Part shown: positions 6,001 through 24,886 of the stretch, piece after piece
Numbering within the stretch: position 1 is the first letter of the stretch
How the letters are laid out: every line of letters starts with the position of its first letter
From: an uncultured Gammaproteobacteria bacterium
Lineage (GTDB): Bacteria; Patescibacteriota; Patescibacteriia; UBA2196; GWA2-42-15
Length of the DNA: 64,000 nt
NCBI GenBank assembly: GCA_964573135.1
Contig: CAZNIO010000002.1
Location: forward strand, 2,535 to 66,534
Direction: 5' to 3'
The notes under the pieces: model-generated
Told to the model about the DNA's origin: nothing
Seen by the model: the letters and a program-made list of their open reading frames with translations, nothing else
Databases searched by the model: none
Program-made: the position numbers and the translations under genes

Positions 6001-8089
6001 CACTGAAGCAAAACTCAAACCCCTAACCGACGAAATGCTACTTGATCTTGAAAAAAATACAGTTGATTTTGCATCTAATTATGACGACACTCAAAAAGAA
6101 CCTAAAGTCCTACCGGCTAATCTACCCAACCTGCTGGTTAACGGTACATTAGGTATTGCAGTCGGTATGGCTACCAATATCCCTCCTCATAATTTAAGTG
6201 AAATAATAGACGGAGTATGCCTCCTCATAGACAAACCCAATAGTGATACCGACGACCTCTTTCAATTTATCCAGGGACCCGACTTCCCAACTGGTGCCAT
6301 TATCTATAACAAAAACGATATCAAGCAAGCCTATGCTACTGGCAAAGGCTCTATTGTCATGCGTGCCGAAAACGAAATAGTTGAAGCCAAAGGTGGTGCA
6401 TTTCAAATAATAATATCATCCGTTCCTTACCAGGTTAATAAAGCTACTCTGCTTGAAAAAATAGCTGATTTAGTCAAAACCAAAAAAGTAGAAGGCATTA
6501 GGGATCTGCGTGACGAATCCTCAAAAGGCGACGTGCGCATAGTCATTGATCTTAAAAAAGATGCTTACCCTAAAAAAATATTAAATCAGCTATATAAACA
6601 CACTTCTCTGCAAACCTCCTTCCACGTTAATATGTTAGCTTTAGTCGACGGTATCCAACCAAGAGTCCTCACCCTAAAAATGATTCTTGAAGAATTTATC
6701 AAACACAGACAAGAAGTAGTCGAGCGTAGAACTAAATTTGAACTAGATAAAGCCAAGGCTCGTGCCCACGTACTTGAAGGCTTAATGCTGGCTTTAAATA
6801 AAATAGATGCCGTCATTAAAACAATCAAAGCCTCAAAAGACAGGGAAGAAGCCAAAAATAACCTTATAAAAAAATTCAAACTCACAGAAATCCAATCCAT
6901 CGCCATTCTAGAAATGAAACTTCAACAGCTAGCTAATTTAGAAAAACTAAAAATTGAAACTGAACTTAAAGAAAAGAAAAAAATAATCAAAGAATTAACT
7001 GAACTACTCAAAAGTCCAAAGAAAATTTTAGCACTTATCAAAAAAGAACTTCTAGCTGTCAAAGAAAAATTTGGTGATGAAAGAAAAACTAGAATTATCA
7101 AAGGCGCAGTTAATCAATTTTCACAAGAAGACCTTATCCCAGACGAAAATGTTATCATTGTCATTACAAAAGATGGATATATTAAACGTATGCCACTGGA
7201 TACATTCAAGGCCCAAGGCCGTGGCGGCAAAGGAGTAACTGGACTAGCCACAAAAGAAGAGGATACTGTTGAAGAATTCTTCACAACCTCTACTCATAAT
7301 AATCTTCTCTTCTTCACCACTCGTGGCAGAGTCTTTCAACTCAAAGCATACGAAATTCCAGTCGCATCGCGCATAGCCAAAGGCCAATCCATCGTTAATT
7401 TCCTGGAACTAGCACCAAACGAAAAAGTATCCTCTGTCTTCTCTTTAGGTCTGCTTGATAAGTATAAATATTTAGTAATGGTTACAACATCAGGTACAAT
7501 CAAAAAAGTAGAAATTTCTGCCTTCTCTAATGTGCGTCGCTCTGGACTAATTGCCCTAAAACTTAAAGGAGAAGATACCCTAGCCTGGGTAGAGCCATCA
7601 ACAGGGCAAGATGAAATAATGTTAACCACTACTCTTGGTCAAGCAATACGCTTTAAGGAAAAAGATCTACGTGCCATGGGTAGAGGAGCTGCCGGCGTAC
7701 GTGGTATCCGACTCAAAAAGGATAGCCAAGTATCAGGCATGGATATGATTAATAAAGAAAAAATAAAAGGCTATCTCTTTGCCTTATCCTCTAACGGATT
7801 TGGTAAAATAACAGCCATCAAAAACTACAAAACCCAAGGCCGTGGAGGCTCTGGTATTAAAACTCTAAAGGTTACAAATAAAACTGGCCCCCTAGCTTCA
7901 TCCTTTATAGTCGATCCTAAAAACTTACCCGAAGAAACAAAAGGTGACCTCATAATAATATCCGAAAAGGGTCAAGTCATCCGCCTACCTTTAAAATCAG
8001 TACCAACCCTGGGTCGTGACACCCAAGGCGTACGCCTCATGCGCCTAAAAAACGCAAATGACAGTGTGGCCAATGTAACCCTGGTCTAA
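3095..8089 (+). CDS. gyrA: DNA gyrase subunit A carrying two inteins. The extein is about 835 aa; the whole ORF is 1664 aa.
   Basis: N-terminus [50 protein letters not shown] (catalytic Tyr), then TEAKL...[18 protein letters not shown]. The C-terminal beta-pinwheel repeats are intact. Confidence 0.95.
3479..4651 (+). mobile_element. Intein 1 in gyrA (391 aa), inserted between GQGNFG and SLDGD. It starts with Cys and ends with HN, and the +1 residue is Ser. It has a putative HNH-like endonuclease domain (HHL...HH..N).
   Basis: The host protein is continuous when residues 129-519 are removed (HGQGNFG|[12 protein letters not shown] matches the E. coli GyrA consensus). It carries the canonical intein terminal residues C...HN/S. 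Confidence 0.8.
4688..6001 (+). mobile_element. Intein 2 in gyrA (438 aa), at the classical gyrA-a site right after the catalytic Tyr (AMRY|C...HN|TE). It contains a LAGLIDADG homing endonuclease domain.
   Basis: [13 protein letters not shown]...FINHN|TEAKL parallels the Mxe GyrA intein (CITGDALVAL...VSHN|TEARL). LAGLIDADG-like blocks [14 protein letters not shown] and [14 protein letters not shown] are present. Confidence 0.9.
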
Positions 8090-8390: not shown

Positions 8391-8558
8391 CAAAAAATAT
8401 TCATACACCTTAAACCCTTCGGGTAAAGAAGTTGCTTTTGTCGAATACTCAGCCGCTAAAATTTCACAAAAATTTCTAAACGAAGACATTCCCAATTTAC
8501 TTAGTGATCTACCCAATCTAATTATTACGGAAAAAACTGCAACAAGGAACAAATAGAA

Positions 8559-10071: not shown

Positions 10072-10384
10072 GCCGAGGTAGCTCAGTGGTAGAGCACAGG
10101 ACTGAATTTTCGGTCCATCACAAAGCAATTTGTGATCGCAAACTGGGTGAATTCGGGGAAACCTACGGTCATATGTATGACTATGGCAATCCCGAGCCAA
10201 GCTCTAGAGGGTATAAGTTCTAGAGAAGGTGTAGAGACTAACAGGTGAGTCCCAACAATAACCCTGTATAAGCGCCCAGCCCCTAATATTCAATTAGGGT
10301 GATGAGATAGTCCGATCCTAAAGGAAACTTTAGTTAACACACAGGAAAATCCTGGTGTCGAGAGTTCGATTCTCTCCCTCGGCA
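10072..10384 (+). tRNA. tRNA-Phe (anticodon GAA) interrupted by a group I intron. Exons are 10072..10103 and 10345..10384; no CCA is encoded.
   Basis: The exons join to GCCGAGGUAGCUCAGUGGUAGAGCACAGGACU|GAAAAUCCUGGUGUCGAGAGUUCGAUUCUCUCCCUCGGCA, a complete cloverleaf with close similarity to bacterial tRNA-Phe. The acceptor stem GCCGAGG/CCTCGGC pairs across the intron. Confidence 0.8.
10104..10344 (+). ncRNA. Group I self-splicing intron (241 nt) in the anticodon loop of tRNA-Phe, between U33 and G34
   Basis: The core closely resembles Azoarcus/cyanobacterial tRNA group I introns (GAATTCGGGGAAACCTACGG, TATGGCAATCCCGAGCCAAGC, GAAGGTGTAGAGACTAACAGGTGAG). P1 forms between exon GGACU and intron GGUCC with a U.G at the 5' splice site. 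The last intron nucleotide is G. Confidence 0.8.
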
Positions 10385-10899
10385 AATCGCGGGATGTGGT
10401 ATAATGGTAGTACGTATGCTTTGGGAGCATATAGCGGGAGTTCGATTCTCCCCATCCCGAATTTAAAACTCTGACTTTGCGTCAGGGTTTTAAAATACCC
10501 CAATAAAAAAGATGATGTACTATTTAATATACACCATCTTATAATCTTATTTCTTGCCCTCTTTTCTATCCAAGCCCAATTGCGCTCGTTATCTGCTTTA
10601 ATAATTTGTGGATAATGAGCGCAGACATCGGAATTTAATAAAACACTGGCTCGCATTTTATACTTATCCAATAAATCCATTATCCGCCAAAGTCCCACCC
10701 GCACACCATAATCTCGCCAGCCATAATTTAACGGATCTGGATCCAAATTGGCAGTGCCAGAAAAAATACTTGTGGCCGGCTTACCGAGCTCATAATCCTC
10801 AATATTCAATCCAATATAAACAGCGAACCCTTCCCCGTTCGGCCATTTAATTTTTGGCCGTTCAATGATAGGGCTATAATTAAAAAGTTCATTTTCCAT
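10330..10899 (-). pseudogene. 3'-truncated PuuE/polysaccharide-deacetylase-like gene. Only about 115 N-terminal residues are homologous; the reading frame then runs through the tRNA-Pro/Phe genes.
   Basis: ERPKIKWPNGEGFAVYIGLNIEDYE...YGVRVGLWRIMDLL...NSDVCAHYPQIIKA parallels the PuuE N-terminus (KWPG.ARIALSFVLNYEEGGE...YGSRAGVWRLL...NPEVIRA). The catalytic GHE..SHG segment is lost and the 3' part overlaps tRNAs. Confidence 0.45.
10390..10460 (+). tRNA. tRNA-Pro (anticodon UGG)
   Basis: C1-G72 acceptor (CGGGATG/CATCCCG), anticodon loop TTTGGGA with G37, T-arm GGGAG/TTCGATT/CTCCC. It starts 5 nt after tRNA-Phe. Confidence 0.85.
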
Positions 10900-15295: not shown

Positions 15296-15775
<480 letters not shown>

Positions 15776-15798
15776 AATAATTTAAAATATCTTGAACT

Positions 15799-16020
15799 AT
15801 GAACAAAAATAATCCAGTAGAAAAACATTGCCATTTCTGTGCCAATCAAATAAATAACATTGATTGGAAGGATATTCCTGCTCTTCAACGCTTTATGTCA
15901 CACTACTGCCGTATCGTACCCAGAAGAAGAACTGGTCTATGTGCCAAGCACCAAAGAAAAATATCAAAACTTATCAAAAGAGCCAGGGAAATGGGCCTCA
16001 TGCCTTTTGTTAGAAAATAG
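15799..16020 (+). CDS. rpsR: 30S ribosomal protein S18
   Basis: CHFCANQINNIDWKD...LQRFMSHYCRIVPRRRTGLCAKHQRKISKLIKRAREMGLMPF. Confidence 0.9.
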   Translation: MNKNNPVEKHCHFCANQINNIDWKDIPALQRFMSHYCRIVPRRRTGLCAKHQRKISKLIKRAREMGLMPFVRK

Positions 16021-18350: not shown

Positions 18351-19005
18351 TTATTCGCCGATAAATCACTTTTGACTTACCATATCTTTTCCTGGCTTCT
18401 AGCTTAATTACATTTAAACCCGGATTCAAATCTATGTCAACCAAAAAATATCCATCTTCCCCTAATGCTATTTCATCATCATTTAAGCGCACCAAAGACT
18501 CATCTCCAACATACCCCAAAATTTTGATAAAAGATAGAGTTGTTACAAAGTTCTCCTCTGGATAAACCACCAAAAAACGGGGTGGTGAGACTAAAGACCA
18601 AATTTGTTGACCCAGATAACCAACAATTAAAAAAACAACAATTCCTATTAAAACATTTCTAATAATTCTGGGTAAAACCACAAATCTTTTTCTCCCTACC
18701 CCAAATTTTTCAGCTCCTACATTTTTACTTACCCTATTAAGCCTTAATTCTTTTTCATACTTATCCTTTATTTTTACAAAACTAATCCCTAAAAATTCAG
18801 CATATTTTTTTAAAAAATTCTTCCTATAAATCTCACCTGGAATTTCTTCCCACTCATTATTCTCTAATGCATTTAAATAATGCTGGCTAATTCCCAATTT
18901 TTTCTCAATTGCCCATAAAGACAAATTAAGCGCTTTACGCGCTTTTTGTAAATCTTCACCAAGAGAATCTGTGGTGATTATTCTTTTTTGTCGAAAAACA
19001 ACCAT
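18340..19005 (-). CDS. RodZ-like cytoskeleton protein (XRE-type HTH + TM + C-terminal domain)
   Basis: HTH LGEDLQKARKALNLSLWAIEKKLGISQHYLNALE, one TM helix (VLIGIVVFLIVGYL) and a beta-rich C-terminal domain. Confidence 0.55.
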   Translation of the reverse strand: MVVFRQKRIITTDSLGEDLQKARKALNLSLWAIEKKLGISQHYLNALENNEWEEIPGEIYRKNFLKKYAEFLGISFVKIKDKYEKELRLNRVSKNVGAEKFGVGRKRFVVLPRIIRNVLIGIVVFLIVGYLGQQIWSLVSPPRFLVVYPEENFVTTLSFIKILGYVGDESLVRLNDDEIALGEDGYFLVDIDLNPGLNVIKLEARKRYGKSKVIYRRIIVE

Positions 19006-19013
19006 AAAAAATA

Positions 19014-21263
19014 TTATCTTTCTTCTTCCTCATCAAGCTCTTCTTCTTCTGCTACTTCTTCCTCTTGAGTCTCTTCTTCTATTTTGTCTTCTGCATATTC
19101 ATCTATAATCTCATTATCACCAATTTCTTCGGAGCTAGCAACTAAAATCTCTCTCGGTTTAGATCCTTCTTGAGGACCAATTGCCCCCTCCTCTTCCAAT
19201 AAATCCAAAATTCTTGCAGCGCGTGCATAACCAATTCTTAATCTTCTCTGTAAATATGAAGCCGAAGCCTTGCCTGCTTTAATAACTAAATCTCTGGCTT
19301 CATCTAAAAACTCATCCGAATCTTCATCCTCAAAACCAGAAGATACTCTAACTCCAGTAGCACCACCAGTAGCTCTTTCAACTACTGCCTCATCATAATC
19401 AGATTCAGCTGATTTACGTAAATAACCCACCACATTCTCAATATCTTCATCACTCGCATATGCTCCCTGCAAACGCTTTGGTTTTGAAATTTCTGCTGAA
19501 GTGAAAAGCATGTCTCCTCTACCAAGCAACTTCTCAGCTCCAGACACATCAAGTATTGTACGTGAATCCGTCAAAGACGCCACCGAAAACGCAATCCTAC
19601 CAGGTATATTTGCTTTTATAAGACCAGTGATAATATCAACTGATGGTCGCTGAGTAGCCAAAACTAAGTGGATTCCTACAGCTCGAGACATTTGTGCCAA
19701 ACGTATAATCGCTGCCTCTACTTCAGCAGAGGCCACTGACATCAAATCTGCCAACTCATCGATCATAAATACCAAATAAGGCATCTTCTCCCTTGGATGA
19801 GCTGTGTTATAACTTTGAATATTTCTCTTACCAGCATTTGATAAAACATGAAAACGCCTCTCCATCTCAGAGATTGTCCATTTTAATGCATTAATTGTTT
19901 TTTTAATGTCCACAATCACCGGTGTCATCAAATGAGGAATATCATTATACCCAATCATTTCTACTCTCTTGGGATCAACCAAAATCATCTTTAATTCATC
20001 GGGCTGATTTTGATAAAGCAAAGATACAATAATGGAATTTAAACACACCGTTTTACCAGAATTAGTCGCACCCGCTACCAATAGATGAGGTAACCTACTC
20101 AAATCGGTAATCCACGGCTTACCAGCCACATCTTGCCCCAAAACAATAGTTAAATTAGATTTTCTTGTTTTAAATTCTTTCGATTCCAAAACCTGTCGCA
20201 AAGGCACCACTGCAATTTTCTTATTAGGCACCTCAATACCTACCAGCGCCTTACCAGGAATTGGCGCCTCAATACGAATCGGATGTGCTGCCAAAGCTAA
20301 AGATAAATCATTACCCAAACCCACTATACGCGATAATTTAACACCATCCATGGGACGAAAAGTATATTGAGTGACGGTTGGGCCAATAGATATCTCTCCC
20401 ATCTCAACCTCAATCCCAAAATTATTAAGTGTTTTTTTAATAATCTCTTGGCACAAGGTAGTATCTCTGGCTGTCGGCTCACCTGCTTTCGCATTTAAAA
20501 GATCAAGCGGAATATCAATCCGTGGATATTTCTTTCTTCTTTTTTTGGGGCGATCCTCATCCCCCTCTTCTTCATCTTCTTCCTCCTCTTCCTCCTCTTC
20601 TTCCTCATCACTATCAGCCAATTCTCTTCGGTCAAATTCAACTTCACCCTCTTCTTCCTCCTCATCCTCTTCTTCAGAATCTTCTCCTTTCCCCCTTACT
20701 CTCTTATTCACAAAATCTCCCATGCCTTGCCTTAAATTTTTTAAGGTAGCTCTTTCAATTAAGGATTCAAGCGTAGTATTAAACATAAGTAACACACCAA
20801 TCACCAAAAAGGCAAACATTACTACCATCGAAGCCCAACGACCCATCATCGCAAAAAATGGATAGCTTATAGCAAAACCAACATAACCCCCACCCATGCC
20901 ATCTTTTAAAATTTCCTTATACGATTCAGGATCCTGTACCAAATGAAAAAATCCAGAATAACCCAAAATTAAAAGCATCACTCCAATCCAATTAATCATT
21001 CTAAAAGAATGTTTGGTATTTTTTAAATTCAAATATCCAGCAGCTAAGAGCACCAAAGGAAATATCCAAAAACCCCAACCAAATACCAATTCCAAAACCC
21101 TATACATCCATCTACCAAATCCACCCGCCAAATCAAAAATAGACAGTAAGCTTATAAGAGCTACTGCGAAGATTATAACAATAAAAATACCTTTTTTAGT
21201 TGAATTCTCTACTTCCAAAAAATCACCAGAAAACCCAAATTTTCTCTTTTTCCTTCTTCCCAT
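19014..21263 (-). CDS. ftsK: DNA translocase FtsK/SpoIIIE with a long acidic low-complexity linker
   Basis: N-terminal TM helices, Walker A VAGATNSGKTVCLNSII, Walker B LVFMIDELADLM, C-terminal gamma wHTH (ASASYLQRRLRIGYARAARILDLLEEEG). The poly-Glu/Asp insert is coding low complexity. Confidence 0.9.
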   Translation of the reverse strand: MGRRKKRKFGFSGDFLEVENSTKKGIFIVIIFAVALISLLSIFDLAGGFGRWMYRVLELVFGWGFWIFPLVLLAAGYLNLKNTKHSFRMINWIGVMLLILGYSGFFHLVQDPESYKEILKDGMGGGYVGFAISYPFFAMMGRWASMVVMFAFLVIGVLLMFNTTLESLIERATLKNLRQGMGDFVNKRVRGKGEDSEEEDEEEEEGEVEFDRRELADSDEEEEEEEEEEDEEEGDEDRPKKRRKKYPRIDIPLDLLNAKAGEPTARDTTLCQEIIKKTLNNFGIEVEMGEISIGPTVTQYTFRPMDGVKLSRIVGLGNDLSLALAAHPIRIEAPIPGKALVGIEVPNKKIAVVPLRQVLESKEFKTRKSNLTIVLGQDVAGKPWITDLSRLPHLLVAGATNSGKTVCLNSIIVSLLYQNQPDELKMILVDPKRVEMIGYNDIPHLMTPVIVDIKKTINALKWTISEMERRFHVLSNAGKRNIQSYNTAHPREKMPYLVFMIDELADLMSVASAEVEAAIIRLAQMSRAVGIHLVLATQRPSVDIITGLIKANIPGRIAFSVASLTDSRTILDVSGAEKLLGRGDMLFTSAEISKPKRLQGAYASDEDIENVVGYLRKSAESDYDEAVVERATGGATGVRVSSGFEDEDSDEFLDEARDLVIKAGKASASYLQRRLRIGYARAARILDLLEEEGAIGPQEGSKPREILVASSEEIGDNEIIDEYAEDKIEEETQEEEVAEEEELDEEEER

Positions 21264-21584
21264 AATATTAGTGAAAAAATTAAGTATAACTGTATTTTAT
21301 CATCTTATCCCTATAGCTACAATAGCTACAACATATCCAGTAGGTTATCTAGGCTAGCGAAGTGATTACTACTAACTTTAGTATAAATTTGTATAGTTTC
21401 TAAACCTAATAATTACTAAATATATCCAATATCCTAGTTTACAGTCCGCGATAAATTTTTATTGATTTGCATATTCTAGGAATCTTCAGTTATAATAAAG
21501 ACAAGAATTAAAAATAATAACATAAAGTATAGATAACATACAAATTACAAGCATTATCAATCAAAAAGTTTAGATATACGCTAG

Positions 21585-21825
21585 TTGTCAAAAATATCGT
21601 TCGCTCCACTCCGCTACCGCTACGTTACACTCCTCAATTTTTGACAATGCCGACGAATAGGCTTGGGCCTTCTAAGAGCTCACGATTCTTCTGACAACAA
21701 CGGATAAGCGGCTCGCAACGACCCTACTGGCTTCCCTGCTCGGCCCAAACCTAACTCAGTCCTTTCCTTAGTCTGAAAGCCTTCGGCTTTCACCCTGCGG
21801 AAAGTCCTTCGTTAGGCTTCGCCTA
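21585..21825 (+). repeat. Copy A of a ~231-241-nt GC-rich structured repeat. It contains an 11-bp inverted repeat (TTGTCAAAAAT...ATTTTTGACAA), a UUCG hairpin and a 69-nt attC-like palindrome (ACCTAAC...GTTAGGC) at 21749..21817.
   Basis: ~99% identical to copy A' (3 substitutions and one 10-nt indel). It lies immediately upstream of the ORF at 21884. Confidence 0.75.
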
Positions 21826-21883
21826 TCCGTCGGCATTATTCGAAATATATTTTTATTTTTACTTACCATTTAACTAAAATTTT

Positions 21884-22321
21884 ATGTCAGATCAACTTCC
21901 AGACGAAAATTCAAAACGTTTTATTGCTGTTCTCAACAAGAAAGTTGAAACAGGCAAACTTATGAACGCACTTGGGCACATTACGGCTGGTCTTGCGGGT
22001 GGCTCTAATAAAACCGACGAAATGTGCTTTTTACAATATCAGGATAAAGAGGGCGGTAGTCATCCAAATATTTCTCACTTTCCGTTTATTGTACTCAAAG
22101 TTGACAACTCTAATAAAATTCGCAAAGTTCGCAACGAAGCCATCGACCGAAACATACCTTTCTCTGATTTCACGAGTACTATGACTGTTGGCACTTCTCA
22201 AGAACAACAGGACGCCACCCGCAAGACCTCCGAGGAAGAATTAGAATATTACGCTATTGTCTTGTTTGGTGGAACTGAAGAGCTGAAAGAATTCACAGGC
22301 AAGTTCTCTTTATACCAGTAA
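21884..22321 (+). CDS. Hypothetical protein, possibly DUF2000-like
   Basis: 145 aa, no motif I can assign with certainty. It is flanked by the A and A' repeats. Confidence 0.45.
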   Translation: MSDQLPDENSKRFIAVLNKKVETGKLMNALGHITAGLAGGSNKTDEMCFLQYQDKEGGSHPNISHFPFIVLKVDNSNKIRKVRNEAIDRNIPFSDFTSTMTVGTSQEQQDATRKTSEEELEYYAIVLFGGTEELKEFTGKFSLYQ

Positions 22322-22471
22322 AAATAAAAATAAACTCAAACCCCGCTGCGCTCTCCTCCTTGCAGTCGTCGGGTCGCACAACACCGTATATCTGGAAAAT
22401 GGCCTCAGCTCGGCATTTTCTCGAATTTACAACTCATTGCATTCATTGTAAACTCCAGATATCCCGATACA

Positions 22472-22702
22472 TTGTCAAAAATATCGTTCGCTCCACTCCG
22501 CTACCGCTACGTTACACTCCTCAATTTTTGACAACGCCGACGAATAGGCTTGGGCCTTCTAAGAGCTCACGATTCAACGGATAAGCGGCTCGCAACGACC
22601 CTACTGGCTTCCCTGCTCGGCCCAAGCCTAACTCAGTCCTTTCCTTAGTCTGAAAGCCTTCGGCTTTCACCCTGCGGAAAATCCTTCGTTAGGCTTCGCC
22701 TA
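22472..22702 (+). repeat. Copy A' of the structured repeat. The attC-like 69-nt palindrome GCCTAAC-N55-GTTAGGC lies at 22626..22694.
   Basis: Direct comparison with copy A. It ends 71 nt upstream of the HD-domain gene. Confidence 0.75.
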
Positions 22703-22772
22703 CCCATCCCATTAGCTTAAATTACCCAAAACCATTTTAATCTTTTCTATTTAATTATAATTTTTCATAAAA

Positions 22773-23417
22773 ATGAACAAAAAACAAATCATAAATCAAA
22801 CGGCTAAGCACGTCAAAATGAAACTAACCGGCGAAGGTTCTGGTCATGACTGGTGGCATGTTTATCGTGTCTGGAAAAATGCTGTCCATATTGGTAAACA
22901 TGAGAATGCAGATTTATTTGTTGTTGAACTTGCCGCCCTGCTTCACGATATCGCTGACTGGAAATTTCATAGTAATGCAGGTCCAAAATTGGCTCGCGAG
23001 TGGTTAAAAAAATTATCTGTTGATGAAAACGTAATTTCTCATGTTTGCCAAATCGTTCGAGACGCTTCATTCAAGGGCGCTAGCGTCATGACCAGAATAA
23101 AAACCAAGGAGGGTATGGTTGTTCAAGATGCCGATCGTTTAGACGCAATTGGCGCAATTGGAATCGGTAGAACCTTCGCCTACGGTGGCAGTCAAGGTCG
23201 CGAGATGTATAATCCCAATATTAAAACTAAAAAATATAAATCGCCTGATCAGTTTAAAAACAGCAGGAGTCCCACAATAAATCATTTTTATGAAAAATTA
23301 CTACTCTTGAAAGAATTAATGAATACCACGACTGCAAAAAAAATTGCCAGGAAACGACATAAATTTATGGGGAAGTTTCTAGACAAATTCTTTCAAGAGT
23401 GGGAAGGTAAAGATTAA
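22773..23417 (+). CDS. HD-domain phosphohydrolase
   Basis: H...HD motif (WWHVYRVWKNAVHIG...LAALLHDIADWKF) and downstream conserved D. Confidence 0.8.
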   Translation: MNKKQIINQTAKHVKMKLTGEGSGHDWWHVYRVWKNAVHIGKHENADLFVVELAALLHDIADWKFHSNAGPKLAREWLKKLSVDENVISHVCQIVRDASFKGASVMTRIKTKEGMVVQDADRLDAIGAIGIGRTFAYGGSQGREMYNPNIKTKKYKSPDQFKNSRSPTINHFYEKLLLLKELMNTTTAKKIARKRHKFMGKFLDKFFQEWEGKD

Positions 23418-23624
23418 AATGGTTTTGGACAACTCAAGCCACGCTGCGCTCTCACCAGCCCTTTTATTTTTTTAACAATAATGATGGCGGGCTCAGGTCA
23501 GCTAACACCGAGTATACGGTTCAGGCCTCAGCTCGGCCTTCACCCATATTTGCCTCCGCTACGCTATAACAAGCATCGTATACACGCATACATTATTCGA
23601 AATTTATTTTAAAAATTATTTTTT

Positions 23625-24011
23625 ATGAGAAAAGACATAGTCGCATTAATACTTGAAAAAGACGGATTATTTTTAATAGAAGAAAGGAAGAGTACAAATA
23701 CGTTAGATCCTGATAAGTTTGTATTTCCTGGCGGGCATCTTCATGTAGATGAAAAACTAGAGGATGCTATTAAACGTAAAACGTTTGAAGAATTACACAT
23801 TAAACTGATTAATTTCAAATTAGTATATGTGAAAAATTTTGACGGACCAGAAGAAAAACAAAAGCTTCACTGGTATTGGTGCGATAATTTTACTGGTAAA
23901 ATACAAAATAATGAAGCTGAACAATTAATTTGGATAAATGCAACTGAAATAGAAAGACTATCCTACCAAGTTAGCAAAGACGCATTCAAGGCCATGCTAA
24001 ACCAAAAATAA
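23625..24011 (+). CDS. NUDIX hydrolase
   Basis: Nudix-box-like region (GGHLHVDEKLEDAIKRKTFEELHI) in a 128-aa protein. Confidence 0.75.
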   Translation: MRKDIVALILEKDGLFLIEERKSTNTLDPDKFVFPGGHLHVDEKLEDAIKRKTFEELHIKLINFKLVYVKNFDGPEEKQKLHWYWCDNFTGKIQNNEAEQLIWINATEIERLSYQVSKDAFKAMLNQK

Positions 24012-24100
24012 CTTTTAAAATAAACATCGCCCAACAACGCGATAAGCGACTCCAGAAATTTACATTAATTTATATTTTTTATTCTTTAAACTAAAAACAT

Positions 24101-24379: not shown

Positions 24380-24529
24380 TATTGAAAATCACAAATTTGT
24401 TCTTGTCTGCTCCATCCAAATCCTGCTACTAGCATCAATATTTAATTCATTTAAACATCCGCATTCTGAATTCAACGAATGTGTCATTCGACACGGCTAG
24501 ACTTCAAACATACGGATCCGTTATTCGAA

Positions 24530-24886
24530 ATGGCCACAAATTATTATGAAAAACAAATCAATAAATTTACTGACCAATGGTCTCCCAAAATCATCACCCA
24601 AATAAACAACAATCATTTTAAATTAGCGAGAGTCGAATGAAACTTTAAGTGGCATGATCACAAAAACACCGATGAAGTATTCATGGTATTAGAGGGCCAA
24701 TTACGAATTGATTATCGAGACAGCAGTATTATTTTGAATAAAGGTGAGCTACCTGTGGTAAAAAAAGGAATTGAACATAAACCTTTCGCCACCAAAAAGT
24801 GCAAAATTTTACTTATAGAGCCAGCTGGAACAGTAAATACTGGCGATGTAGGTGGAGACCAAATAGCTCAAAATGAATGGATTTAA
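24530..24886 (+). pseudogene. Cupin-domain gene interrupted by an in-frame TGA (nonsense at 24638..24640)
   Basis: MATNYYEKQINKFTDQWSPKIITQINNNHFKLARVE-TGA-NFKWHDHKNTDEVFMVLEGQLRI... lies in one frame. The cupin motifs (wH.H...dE.f.vleG, P.G.eH) are split by the stop. TGA is a genuine stop elsewhere in this window. Confidence 0.5.

Follow-up and report, generated by a model that had tools for sequence, protein, structure and literature searches.

The window analysed here, a 64-kb stretch of DNA from an uncultured Patescibacteria/CPR bacterium related to Kuenenbacteria, carries between ftsK and rpoC a 3.8 kb array of small same-strand genes with attC-type sites between them. ftsK lies on the minus strand and is followed on the plus strand by genes for a DUF2000 protein, an HD protein, a NUDIX protein and a 92-aa membrane protein, by a broken cupin gene and then by rpoC/rpoB. 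A tblastn search detected no integrase in the 64-kb window. In the closest relative (L010) a 93-aa N-terminal integrase fragment was present upstream of ftsK, and a truncated XerA/IntI-like integrase fragment of L010 shares homology, in its tail, with about 80 nt of the spacer adjoining ftsK in our window. Two copies of a structured repeat sit in the array, copy A and copy B, located 48-61 nt upstream of the start codons of the DUF2000 and HD genes, respectively. The features of the array are listed in Table 1.

Table 1. Features of the ftsK-rpoC array, in positions of the 64-kb window. A vertical bar within a sequence marks a crossover point.
Feature	Position	Strand	Details and basis
AT-rich spacer, ftsK to copy A	21264..21584	.	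ends in AAAGTTTAGATATACGCTAG|TT, similar to the L'-spacer-R' end of site B
Copy A (A1)	21585..21835	+ (array strand; best-folding strand is minus/bottom)	251-nt ORF-less cassette; repeat, folds, attC model
Cassette start (right half of R'), TTGTCAAAAAT	21585..21595	+	perfectly complementary to 21637-21647; 11/11, 0/300 shuffles
Pyrimidine-rich "cargo", 41 nt, between R' and R''	21596..21636	+	no ORF
Outer R'' box, extended, ATTTTTGACAA(T)	21637..21648	+	last base C in copy B, giving TGACAAC
Outer L''-like arm, GCCGACGAATAGGC	21649..21662	+	pairs with 21821-21834; 26-nt repeat-finder arms 21637-21662 / 21821-21846
Inner R''-spacer-L'' module, TGACAAC-AA-CGGATAAGCG	21692..21710	+	attC-model alignments
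69-nt hairpin in variable part, (A/G)CCTAAC ... GTTAGGC	21749..21817	.	reading, fold, L067 sites GCCTAAC...GTTAGGC
attC end of copy A: L' (CGCCTATCCG), 5-nt spacer TCGGC, R' A|TTATTC	21820..21841	+	crossover 21835|21836
DUF2000 cassette	21836..22471	+	ORF 21884-22321
attC site B of DUF2000 cassette	22376..22477	+	75.3 bits, family model
Copy B (A2)	22472..22711	+	240-nt copy of the same cassette as copy A; repeat, attC-site alignment
Cassette start in copy B	22472-22482		same feature as 21585..21595
HD-domain cassette	22712..23592	+	ORF 22773-23417
attC site B-prime (B') of HD cassette	23500..23598	+	93.5 bits, family model
NUDIX cassette	23593..24064	+	ORF 23625-24011; short degenerate attC ending TTACA|TT, 3.2 bits only
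Degenerate attC remnant ending CCG|TTATTCGAAAT, before frameshifted cupin gene	24445..24530	+	7-11 bits, E about 1-2

The two direct copies were located by sequence reading, by a repeat finder and by blastn with global alignment, and blastn gave a copy number of two for the 64 kb. A preliminary description of this DNA had reported two near-identical GC-rich structured copies in AT-rich surroundings, and this was confirmed, with a GC content of 0.49-0.57 within the copies vs 0.22-0.32 in the flanks. The starts given there (21585 and 22472) also stood, while the ends had been placed too early, as similarity between the copies runs on to 21835 and 22711. Within the shorter extents we recovered the same three substitutions (21648 T/C, 21749 A/G, 21804 G/A) and the single 10-nt indel, and the 3' extension added two transitions (21826 T/C, 21829 G/A) plus a GG/C change. 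The full tally of differences between copy A and copy B is five transitions, a 10-nt indel whose bases (about 21687-21698) only copy A carries, and a minor alteration of the 3' end. Copy B has a 49-aa ORF on the minus strand that the 10-nt indel throws out of frame in copy A, and a small protein encoded by the element was rejected as the ORF is not conserved between the copies.

The attC sites of the array were called using a lineage-specific model, not IntegronFinder. The sites following the DUF2000 gene (B) and the HD gene (B') are homologous to each other and to at least six sites of the CPR contig L067, and several L075 sites are homologous to them too. In L067 a tyrosine recombinase gene diverges from an array with DUF2000 and NUDIX cassettes, and the sites of this family have the layout R''-L''...L'-R', as in GCCTAAC-AA-AGGATATGAG ... 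CTCATATCCT-TAAAC-GTTAGGC. Site B is composed of R'' GCACAAC, L'' CGTATATCTG, L' CAGATATCCC, the spacer GATAC and R' A|TTGTCA. Site B' carries the R'' AGCTAAC, complementary to the start of the HD cassette itself (TTAGCT at 22712), and the R' A|TTATTC. In the L box of the family alignment 93.8% of cells were paired and compensatory changes were found in 5 of the 10 pairs; the covariation score was reached by none of 500 shuffles and slid controls were only 15-46% paired. Measured by fold energy B and B' were not significantly structured (z -1 to -2.6), and it is homologous sequence together with covariation that identifies them as putative attC sites. Compared with IntI4, the L067 recombinase is about 43 aa short at the position of the additional domain, and it scored 198 bits on TIGR02249, under the cutoff of 265. 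No adjacent IntI with the additional domain was found in the window or at L067.

Both copies of the repeat are bounded by crossover points of the R' type. Copy A opens directly after the G|TT crossover CTAG|TTGTCA, and its last base is the A of the crossover that follows it, GGCA|TTATTCGAAAT (GGCA|TTATTCG). The left end of copy B coincides with the crossover in the attC of the DUF2000 cassette (GATACA|TTGTCA), and its right end is CCCA|TTAGCTTAAAT (CCCA|TTAGCTT). In both copies the right end is CA|TT, where the next cassette starts. In the family attC alignment the first bases of copy B align with the next-cassette starts of L067, and TTATTCGAAAT has three exact occurrences in the 64 kb, each at an array junction. 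The base preceding TT is A at three of these four copy junctions; A rather than G is also the crossover base at most junctions of the array and at one L075 site. Identity between the copies drops from about 9 nt past the internal GTTAGGC, and an alternative crossover at 21811|21812 instead of 21835|21836 is therefore possible.

Contigs carrying the exact DUF2000 or HD proteins all belonged to the source population, none was an empty-site variant, and most break at the repeat; the cassette-array context accounts for the breakage of contigs of these genomes at the locus. L001 carries a chimeric copy B with the left and middle parts of the copy-A type and the right end of the copy-B type. L006 and L007 show an apparent 887-nt unit (copy A, DUF2000, site B) joined head to tail, for which an assembly loop through the repeat is another possible source. 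In the L066 population the DUF2000 gene is kept and 187 nt of the element are deleted. We considered whether the second copy arose without site-specific recombination, through a common segmental duplication or unequal crossing-over that took in an attI/attC-containing stretch, with the structure a relic of one large attC or attI region. Copy A lies at the expected attI position, between the integrase-remnant side and the first cassette, and the 887-nt units and the L001 chimera show, or are at any rate compatible with, homologous exchange between copies. However, both ends of both copies fall on crossover dinucleotides, unlike random breakpoints, the flanks past the crossovers are unrelated except for the R' consensus, and the L006/L007 structure may be the assembly loop already mentioned. 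We give this explanation a slim chance.

The placement of both copies exactly at attC crossovers, with the structured strand opposite to the cassette genes, could also be produced by a non-autonomous mobile element that targets attC crossovers and is moved in trans by machinery other than an integron-type recombinase, comparable to IS1111-attC elements and group IIC-attC introns. The copy interiors are 99% identical while the neighbouring attC sites are 74% identical to each other, and the breaking of contigs at the element would fit this as well. No transposase, reverse transcriptase or DEDD recombinase was found nearby, though. The element lacks terminal inverted repeats, as its two ends are not mutually complementary, and the flanks of both copies have no target-site duplication; these absences, together with just two copies in 64 kb and none in the collections searched, also argue against a MITE or IS derivative. 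The element is intergenic, has no group II 5' GUGYG or domain V and no group I terminal G, and gave no Rfam intron match, and at 240 nt it is far too small for either group II class intron. Finally its own ends and internal boxes fit a cassette layout, leaving the mobile element quite unlikely. Three other candidates were rejected: diversity-generating retroelement repeats (the repeats do not code for protein, their differences show no adenine specificity and a reverse transcriptase is missing), a retron, bridge-RNA or omega-RNA scaffold (no partner enzyme gene) and a promoter cassette (no sigma-70-like match within the element).

The interior of the element can be read as the parts of a cassette. 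In 7 of 7 gene-carrying cassettes tested, the first ~50 nt form an inverted repeat with sequence at R'' or immediately behind the ORF, with 0/300 shuffles for six of them and 24/300 for the seventh. The 11-bp inverted repeat noted in the preliminary description (TTGTCAAAAAT/ATTTTTGACAA, 21585-95 / 21637-47) is present and is the same feature, enclosing 41 nt instead of a gene. These 41 nt are the sole part of the cassette outside the recombination-site fold, and with so small a cargo the cassette is almost nothing but recombination site. Of the longer-range pairings that had been proposed, the 14-bp helix GCCGACGAATAGGC/GCCTATCCGTCGGC (21649-62 / 21821-34) was upheld and the pairing CTTGGGCC/GGCCCAAG was not found in copy A, which carries GGCCCAAA; it is perfect in copy B only. 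The inner module is a paralogue of the outer one and has the 7+2+10 spacing of the attC family. The R'' word TGACAAC is inner in copy A and outer in copy B, the R' (A/G)TTGTCA is perfectly complementary to it, and the L box is 10 or 14 bp long. Between the arms, the 69-nt hairpin is bounded by (A/G)CCTAAC and GTTAGGC, which serve the related array L067 as canonical R''/R' words. This hairpin contains four symmetric 2x2 internal loops (on the minus strand GA/GA, GA/GA, GC/AA and GG/GA), and at its tip is the hairpin described previously as a tetraloop, present here as GAAAGCC-TTC-GGCTTTC at about 21775-21791.

For a comparison of the copies with the attC family, a covariance model was made from the other attC sites alone. 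Its third-best match in the window was the 3' half of copy A (21688-21845), which scored 26.1 bits (E 1.6e-4) with the top-strand model and 27.7 bits (E 4.6e-4) with the bottom-strand model, a score that stems in part from the shared right flank TTATTCGAAA. The next-best matches in the window were at most 11.4 bits. The match includes the inner module of copy A, whose R'' is lost with the missing 10 nt in copy B; the L' arm of copy B carries two transitions and an indel, and copy B gave no match to the model. The hybrid copy of L001 scored 10.7 bits (E about 1).

The length of the copy A site depends on which module is read as its left half: about 150 nt for the inner reading and about 205 nt for the outer reading. 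attC sites usually measure 57-141 nt, which both readings exceed, and canonical ones require extrahelical bases and a central spacer left unpaired. The outer reading stacks the R helix directly on the L helix, with 0-1 unpaired nt per side, and provides neither such a spacer nor extrahelical bases; the internal 69-nt hairpin, too, offers symmetric loops only. The inner reading shows a 2 vs 5 nt asymmetry as in the attC family. Sites of the same family in L067 reach 127 and 181 nt, and a long site is therefore not far beyond the range of this lineage.

Both strands of the element fold far beyond shuffles and the minus strand is clearly the better. Using RNA parameters copy A folded with -111.7 kcal/mol (z -7.3) on the minus strand vs -85.4 (z -5.8) on the plus strand, and copy B with -101.8 kcal/mol (z -6.1) vs -68.7; DNA parameters gave -55.8 vs -44.7 for copy A and -45.2 vs -37.3 for copy B. 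All five transitions between the copies fall in helices; the minus strand accommodates them as G.T/G.U wobble pairs, and the plus strand is left with A.C. In total, minus-strand G.U pairs that are plus-strand A.C mismatches number 6 in copy A and 8 in copy B. Integrons recombine the bottom strand of attC, which is established knowledge (PMC9668308). The wobble bias and the better folds of the bottom strand may reflect recombination by an integrase acting on the folded bottom strand, for which they are indirect support.

The same strand bias could indicate a structured non-coding RNA gene of about 190-250 nt on the minus strand, antisense to the cassette genes and perhaps itself the cargo of the cassette, whose fold would serve an RNA function (a regulatory or antisense RNA, or a protein-binding scaffold). 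The strength of the minus-strand RNA folds and the confinement of all wobble pairs to that strand agree with this, and the long helix of copy B is kept under RNA parameters and lost under DNA parameters. On the minus strand the 2x2 loops of the 69-nt hairpin are regularly spaced and purine-rich, two of them tandem G.A, and the 41-nt loop is purine-rich too. Functions have been proposed for ORF-less cassettes elsewhere (PMC1382264). Against an RNA gene, each helix of the preliminary description has a direct counterpart in attC architecture, the wobble bias is expected of an attC bottom strand just as well, and on the minus strand the element is flanked by neither a sigma-70-like promoter nor a terminator. 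In addition 187 nt of the element are deleted in L066, no homologues were found, and no known Rfam family matched on either strand: Rfam 15 at gathering scores over the whole window had no match for the element, and a search of 21300-23700 with E up to 10 returned only a chance scaRNA match (27 bits vs a cutoff of 127). We consider an RNA gene unlikely. Elsewhere in the window, the Rfam intron models did find a genuine group I intron, at 10094-10334.

The preliminary description had also implied a link to the downstream genes, and a sense-strand 5' leader or riboswitch controlling DUF2000 and HD would agree with the position of the copies 48-61 nt upstream of the start codons and with two genes that could both act on nucleotides. 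The analysis gave this link no support. The plus strand folds worse and the substitutions break plus-strand pairs, Rfam gave no match, and near-identical leaders before unrelated genes are unlike riboswitch paralogues. DUF2000 homologues 82-88% identical to ours in L067, L068 and L075 have no such element upstream, and L066 retains the gene with most of the element deleted. We consider a leader or riboswitch close to refuted.

Searches for homologues extended to several further collections. The element was absent from the ftsK neighbourhoods of the relatives L010-L014, and BLAST against phage records and plasmids returned nothing or chance AT-rich matches. The hairpin 19-mer, searched against one genome per species, gave 27 unrelated matches in other phyla, none extending past the hairpin. 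A loop-only pattern designed to tolerate covariation gave 24 purine-rich chance matches in metagenome contigs apparently without the source population, and scans of viral contigs gave no match. In the collections searched no homologue was found outside the source population. Among the same contigs and collections there was no empty site, no circle junction and no copy in another genome, and movement of the element is for this reason something that we infer.

The preliminary description had left the choice between a functional RNA and a recombination site. The recombination site is supported by the attC-type array, the ends at crossovers, the R and L boxes and the attC-model match to copy A. 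A functional RNA, for which there was no Rfam match and no homologue outside this population, is a less likely alternative. We conclude with reasonable, if not strong, confidence that the repeats are most likely a paralogous ORF-less integron cassette with an oversized branched attC (about 150-205 nt), residing in a small chromosomal array that has no adjacent integrase gene in this genome (a CALIN). In such a cassette the first 11 nt (TTGTCAAAAAT) would form the right half of R', whose partner would be the extended R'' box ATTTTTGACAA(T/C) lying 41 nt downstream, the L''/L' box would be supplied by the 14-bp long-range helix, and the GC-rich three-way junction between the arms would be an unusually large variable terminal structure. 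The second half-site in the junction, TGACAAC-AA-CGGATAAGCG, would give copy A the 7+2+10 ... 10+5+7 arrangement that is canonical among the attC sites nearby. By analogy with known integrons the bottom (minus) strand would fold as single-stranded DNA, a tyrosine recombinase would cut at the A/G|TT crossover, and the element would be excised as a circle and re-inserted to yield the second copy. Such recombinase-driven movement may be all that the element does, with no function beyond it. Given the absent integrase, the copies of today would act mainly as 240-nt homology flanking the DUF2000 cassette; gene conversion would keep the interiors alike as the 3' arm of copy B decays, and recombination between the copies could delete or duplicate the DUF2000 cassette.

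A broader reading is that Patescibacteria possess an integron-like system of their own, with a short XerA-like recombinase lacking the IntI additional domain, an attC family with a conserved branched core, long inverted repeats bracketing each cassette, and A|TT crossovers permitted. The element would then be a self-propagating "empty" cassette or a cassette with a structured antisense RNA cargo of about 200 nt. We regard this as improbable at present. On the preferred reading, a gene-less duplicated integron cassette, the element is most likely of a known kind and it is the host that is unusual. Recognizing the repeat as this ordinary kind avoids misfiling it as a new riboswitch or small RNA. 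The context is more useful than the repeat, namely attC-type cassette arrays in CPR/Patescibacteria genomes, for which our literature search found no description. Residence in cassette arrays accounts for the roughly 80% identity of the DUF2000 gene among distant CPR lineages. If the recombinase of the L067 array does drive cassettes without the IntI-specific domain, integron-like systems would have to be defined more widely.

Several known systems resemble the locus. Group IIC-attC introns and IS1111-attC elements insert at attC and point the opposite way to the cassettes; they are 1.3-2 kb long, with defining ends of their own and a gene for a reverse transcriptase or a DEDD transposase. The element shares with them a fixed orientation at attC and a structured or functional strand opposite to the cassette genes, but has neither their size nor their enzyme genes or defining ends. 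CALINs are clusters of attC sites lacking an integron integrase (Cury et al. 2016, Neron et al. 2022, PMC9024848). The array likewise has at least two attC-type sites in the same orientation, small promoter-poor genes and no adjacent integrase, and resembles a degraded integron. It departs from CALINs in that its sites were found using a lineage-specific model and in that the only integrase seen beside a related array, that of L067, lacks the IntI-specific additional domain.

As in attC sites (59-base elements, including the long Vibrio cholerae repeats), the element is built of imperfect inverted repeats in the order R''-L''-variable part-L'-R', with the crossover before TT, an AAC triplet in R'' and a bottom strand that folds better. 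Copy A is homologous (26-28 bits) to the attC family of its own array, and the first bases of the cassette complete R'. The element differs from attC sites in its length (150-205 nt as compared to 57-141 nt), in its duplicated R''-L'' half-site, in a variable part formed by a three-way junction with a second attC-like hairpin (GCCTAAC...GTTAGGC), in the contiguous helices of the outer reading, without unpaired central spacer or extrahelical bases, and in a crossover base that is mostly A, not G. A close parallel is found in Vibrio arrays, which contain paralogous conserved non-coding cassettes possibly homogenised by gene conversion (Boucher et al. 2006, PMC1382264). Unlike these, the element resides in a Patescibacteria (CPR) host and in a tiny array of about 6 units without an integrase, it carries a cargo of just 41 nt, searches of other species returned no homologues, and its recombination is putative. 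Like the Vibrio cassettes it is short, ORF-less and bounded by crossovers, is present in more than one near-identical copy per array, is restricted in its distribution to one lineage, and has gene conversion as the suggested homogeniser.

The repeat is probably a duplicated cassette without an ORF, almost all of it recombination site, in a degraded integron-like array, the explanation that we favor with some reserve. Its two direct copies, starting at 21585 (copy A) and 22472 (copy B), were borne out by reading of the sequence, a repeat finder, and blastn with global alignment, and neither the repeat finder nor blastn found a third copy in the 64-kb window. Alignment of the copies reproduced the three substitutions (21648 T/C, 21749 A/G and 21804 G/A) and the single 10-nt indel, present in copy A only, of the preliminary description and carried the similarity beyond its limits to 21835 and 22711, adding two further transitions (21826 and 21829) and a GG/C change. 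The copies were GC-rich as described (GC 0.49-0.57 inside and 0.22-0.32 around) and contained all of the inverted repeats listed for them. A 49-aa ORF on the minus strand of copy B is broken in copy A by the 10-nt indel, and a protein-coding element was therefore rejected.

The FtsK adjoining copy A placed the window in Patescibacteria (CPR), its best named relative being from a Kuenenbacteria MAG (84% identity). Metagenomes of the Antarctic-lake type supplied the contigs whose proteins are identical to those of the window, and the majority of these contigs are broken at the repeat. The minus strand on one side of copy A carries recA, an HTH gene and ftsK, which is followed by 3.8 kb of small plus-strand genes (DUF2000, HD phosphohydrolase, NUDIX, a 92-aa membrane protein and a frameshifted cupin that appears to be a decaying cassette gene) and, beyond the cupin, by a 307-aa gene of unknown function, rpoC and rpoB. 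Relatives carry different DNA on the array side of ftsK. Within ftsK, positions 20540-20700 encode the long acidic Glu/Asp-rich low-complexity linker of FtsK and show a 9-nt periodic repeat in the DNA.

The GC-rich stretches after the DUF2000 and HD genes (sites B and B') are homologous but diverged, sharing 74% identity. Intergenic elements homologous to both were found in the CPR contig L067, where a 270-aa tyrosine recombinase gene (6792-7604, minus strand) stands divergently to a series of small genes on the plus strand, DUF2000 and NUDIX among them. With a layout such as GCCTAAC-AA-AGGATATGAG ... CTCATATCCT-TAAAC-GTTAGGC, these elements can be read as textbook attC sites. In an R and L box alignment of eight sites the L box was 93.8% paired and both sides changed in 5 of 10 pairs; the observed covariation was reached by none of 500 shuffles, and sliding the partner by 1-3 columns left only 15-46% pairing. 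Sites of this family recur in a 30-gene array on a third contig, L075. Because B and B' are homologous to the attC sites of this family, the window holds a small integron-type cassette array with no adjacent integrase gene. DUF2000 itself looks like a widely exchanged cassette gene, because its protein (encoded at 21884-22321) keeps 76-88% identity between many distant CPR lineages in whose genomes FtsK drops to ~55%, and because it lies within the long attC arrays of both L067 and L075. L067 also has a second hairpin repeat family after several genes (~8490-8525, 15740-15865 and 18860-18905; core GGC(G/A)xxCATTCACCCC...CC), unrelated to the attC family.

In the closest relative, contig L010, a recombinase fragment of 93 aa (N-terminal part, XerA/IntI-like) lies directly upstream of ftsK in the position and orientation expected of an integron integrase, and ~80 nt from the tail of this region can still be traced in the window. 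In L010 the place of copy A, which there lies between this fragment and the first of the small genes, is taken by another GC-rich element (395-500, ~100 nt) that forms two strong hairpins (repeated CAGAGTC/GACTCTG; z ~-5). The L067 recombinase aligned end to end with archaeal XerA and with IntI4 in two pieces only, missing ~43 residues where the additional domain lies, the domain that defines IntI (PMC9668308). It passed NF040815 (221 bits, cutoff 220) and failed TIGR02249 (198, cutoff 265), and the L067 array may belong to an integron-like system that works with a Xer-type enzyme.

The ends of the repeat fit this array. In the family alignment TTGTCAAAAAT, at the start of copy B, falls on the next-cassette starts of L067 (TTAGGCG..., TTAAACGAAAT), which puts the beginning of copy B precisely at the site B crossover, ATACA|TT (the bar marks the crossover). 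Copy A starts after CTAG|TT, and both copies end 3' in CA|TT followed by the next cassette start, TTATTCGAAAT or TTAGCTTAAAT; TTATTCGAAAT has three exact occurrences in the 64 kb, all of them at junctions of this kind. Nearly every cassette of the lineage has a bracketing inverted repeat of its 5' end against the bases just past the stop codon, which at 13-21 nt goes well beyond the 7-nt R boxes of classical cassettes, and in 8 of 9 cassettes tested (both repeat copies counted) it was equalled by 0 of 300 shuffles. In gene-carrying cassettes the first 50 nt held a match complementary to sequence immediately past the ORF or at R'' in all 7 tested (scores 9-20; 0/300 shuffles in six, 24/300 in the seventh), and in the L067 acetyltransferase cassette the match runs from the very first base and includes R''. 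The 11-bp inverted repeat of the element would be the same cassette feature, R' pairing with an extended R'' and enclosing 41 nt rather than a gene. Immediately next to it, where the L boxes lie, is a 14-bp long-range helix, and the sequence between the arms of this helix is the variable terminal structure.

Coordinates of array features in the window and in contig L067
Feature	Sequence	Position	Remark
attC-type site B	window	22376-22477	after DUF2000
attC-type site B'	window	23500-23598	after HD
Bracketing inverted repeat	window	21848-21863/22317-22332	
Bracketing inverted repeat	window	22726-22745/23409-23428	
Bracketing inverted repeat	window	23603-23623/24004-24024	
Bracketing inverted repeat	L067	8694-8709/9214-9229	
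Bracketing inverted repeat	L067	16060-16073/16619-16632	
Bracketing inverted repeat	L067	16783-16803/17279-17299	
Crossover junction	window	21835|21836	A, not G
Crossover junction	window	22471|22472	A, not G
Crossover junction	window	22711|22712	A, not G
Crossover junction	window	23592|23593	A, not G
Crossover junction	window	24064|24065	A, not G
Cupin-domain gene	window	24479-24886	two ORFs (53 + 67 aa) split by frameshift

The whole window was scanned, filters off, with a covariance model made from 11 attC sites of the family, none from the repeat. Site B' scored 93.5 bits and B 75.3 bits, followed by copy A (21688-21845) at 26.1 bits (E 1.6e-4), and all remaining matches in the window were at or below 10.5 bits. 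A bottom-strand model left the ranking unchanged, with copy A at 27.7 bits and 10 of 10 L-box pairs standard. The alignment uses an inner half-site in copy A, TGACAAC-AA-CGGATAAGCG (21692-21710), which pairs with CGCCTATCCG-TCGGC-A|TTATTC (21820-21841) in the family spacing of 7+2+10 ... 10+5+7, asymmetric spacers included, and is paralogous to the outer half-site TGACAAT-GCCGACGAATAGGC. The 10-nt deletion in copy B takes out the inner R''. Because copy B gave no match to the model and a hybrid copy in contig L001 just 10.7 bits, part of the copy A score is owed to the intact L' arm and the shared right flank, and the score is therefore supporting, not decisive.

Compared with a canonical attC, the site of the element is long (~150 nt in the inner reading, ~205 nt in the outer), and the outer reading lacks an unpaired central spacer and extrahelical bases; other attC sites of the lineage reach 127 and 181 nt. 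The variable part holds a 69-nt hairpin with the canonical R words of L067, GCCTAAC/GTTAGGC, at its base and symmetric 2x2 loops only, of which two are tandem G.A when read on the minus strand. An alternative crossover at 21811|21812 is conceivable because identity between the copies begins to drop just past the GTTAGGC of this hairpin. The canonical base before the crossover TT is G; it is A at most window junctions and at one L075 site (~2070), and the outer R'' of copy A ends in T (TGACAAT), matching this A.

Both strands of the copies folded far better than shuffles, the minus strand clearly better. RNA folding gave -111.7 (z -7.3) on the minus and -85.4 kcal/mol (z -5.8) on the plus strand of copy A, and -101.8 and -68.7 kcal/mol for copy B; DNA folding gave -55.8 and -44.7 for copy A and -45.2 and -37.3 for copy B. 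The minus-strand structure contains 6 (copy A) or 8 (copy B) G.U pairs that the plus strand reads as A.C mismatches. All five transitions between the copies fall in helices, where each leaves a wobble pair on the minus strand but a mismatch on the plus; without strand preference the probability of five out of five is ~0.03. Integrons recombine the folded bottom strand (PMC9668308). The preliminary description had proposed a functional RNA or a recombination site; array, crossover and attC evidence make the latter the best reading, and the main rival, a cassette-borne minus-strand RNA that the fold would serve, is unlikely.

Searches of Rfam 15 on either strand, as had been suggested, gave no match for the element, and the same scan picked up a genuine group I intron at 10094-10334 (RF00028, 85 bits). 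This 241-nt intron splits the anticodon loop of a tRNA-Phe(GAA) at 10072-10376 that was not called by ARAGORN, and a tRNA-Pro follows at 10390-10460. Nothing above chance was found in phage and plasmid collections, one genome per species, metagenome contigs or viral contigs, and the element was absent from the ftsK loci of relatives and from other DUF2000 loci. Pattern scans of two collections returned only noise, so the absence of homologues is weakly established. A non-autonomous element targeting attC sites would also place copies at crossover points, but the ends of the repeat carry no terminal inverted repeats and no target-site duplication flanks it, nor does any gene for a transposase, reverse transcriptase or nuclease lie nearby, and we consider such an element quite improbable.

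Contigs from the population carry rearranged copies. In L001 (782-1034) copy B is chimeric, its left and middle being of copy A type with the 10-nt insert and its right end of copy B type. In L006 and L007 the 3' end of site B is joined to a wholly copy-A-type copy and then DUF2000, which resembles an 887-nt unit (A - DUF2000 - B) in circular permutation. All three fit gene conversion and crossing-over between the copies, and could equally result from an assembly loop through the repeat. We give little credence to a plain segmental duplication as the source of the second copy. L066, from another sample and another population, joins the left flank of the window to the last 64 nt of copy A through a 187-nt deletion (window 21585-21771) at a TAGT microhomology. 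The DUF2000 gene downstream is intact and therefore not dependent on the element, and a sense-strand leader is close to excluded. L066 also has a frameshifted rve/DDE transposase (233-1121, 1198-1320) ~130 nt upstream of its DUF2000 cassette.

No description of attC arrays in Patescibacteria was found in the literature searched. Arrays without an integrase are known as the CALIN class (PMC9024848). Non-coding cassettes in Vibrio arrays are paralogous within the array, highly conserved and confined to one lineage, with gene conversion possibly homogenising them (PMC1382264), and as a non-coding cassette the element is a further case of a kind already known.
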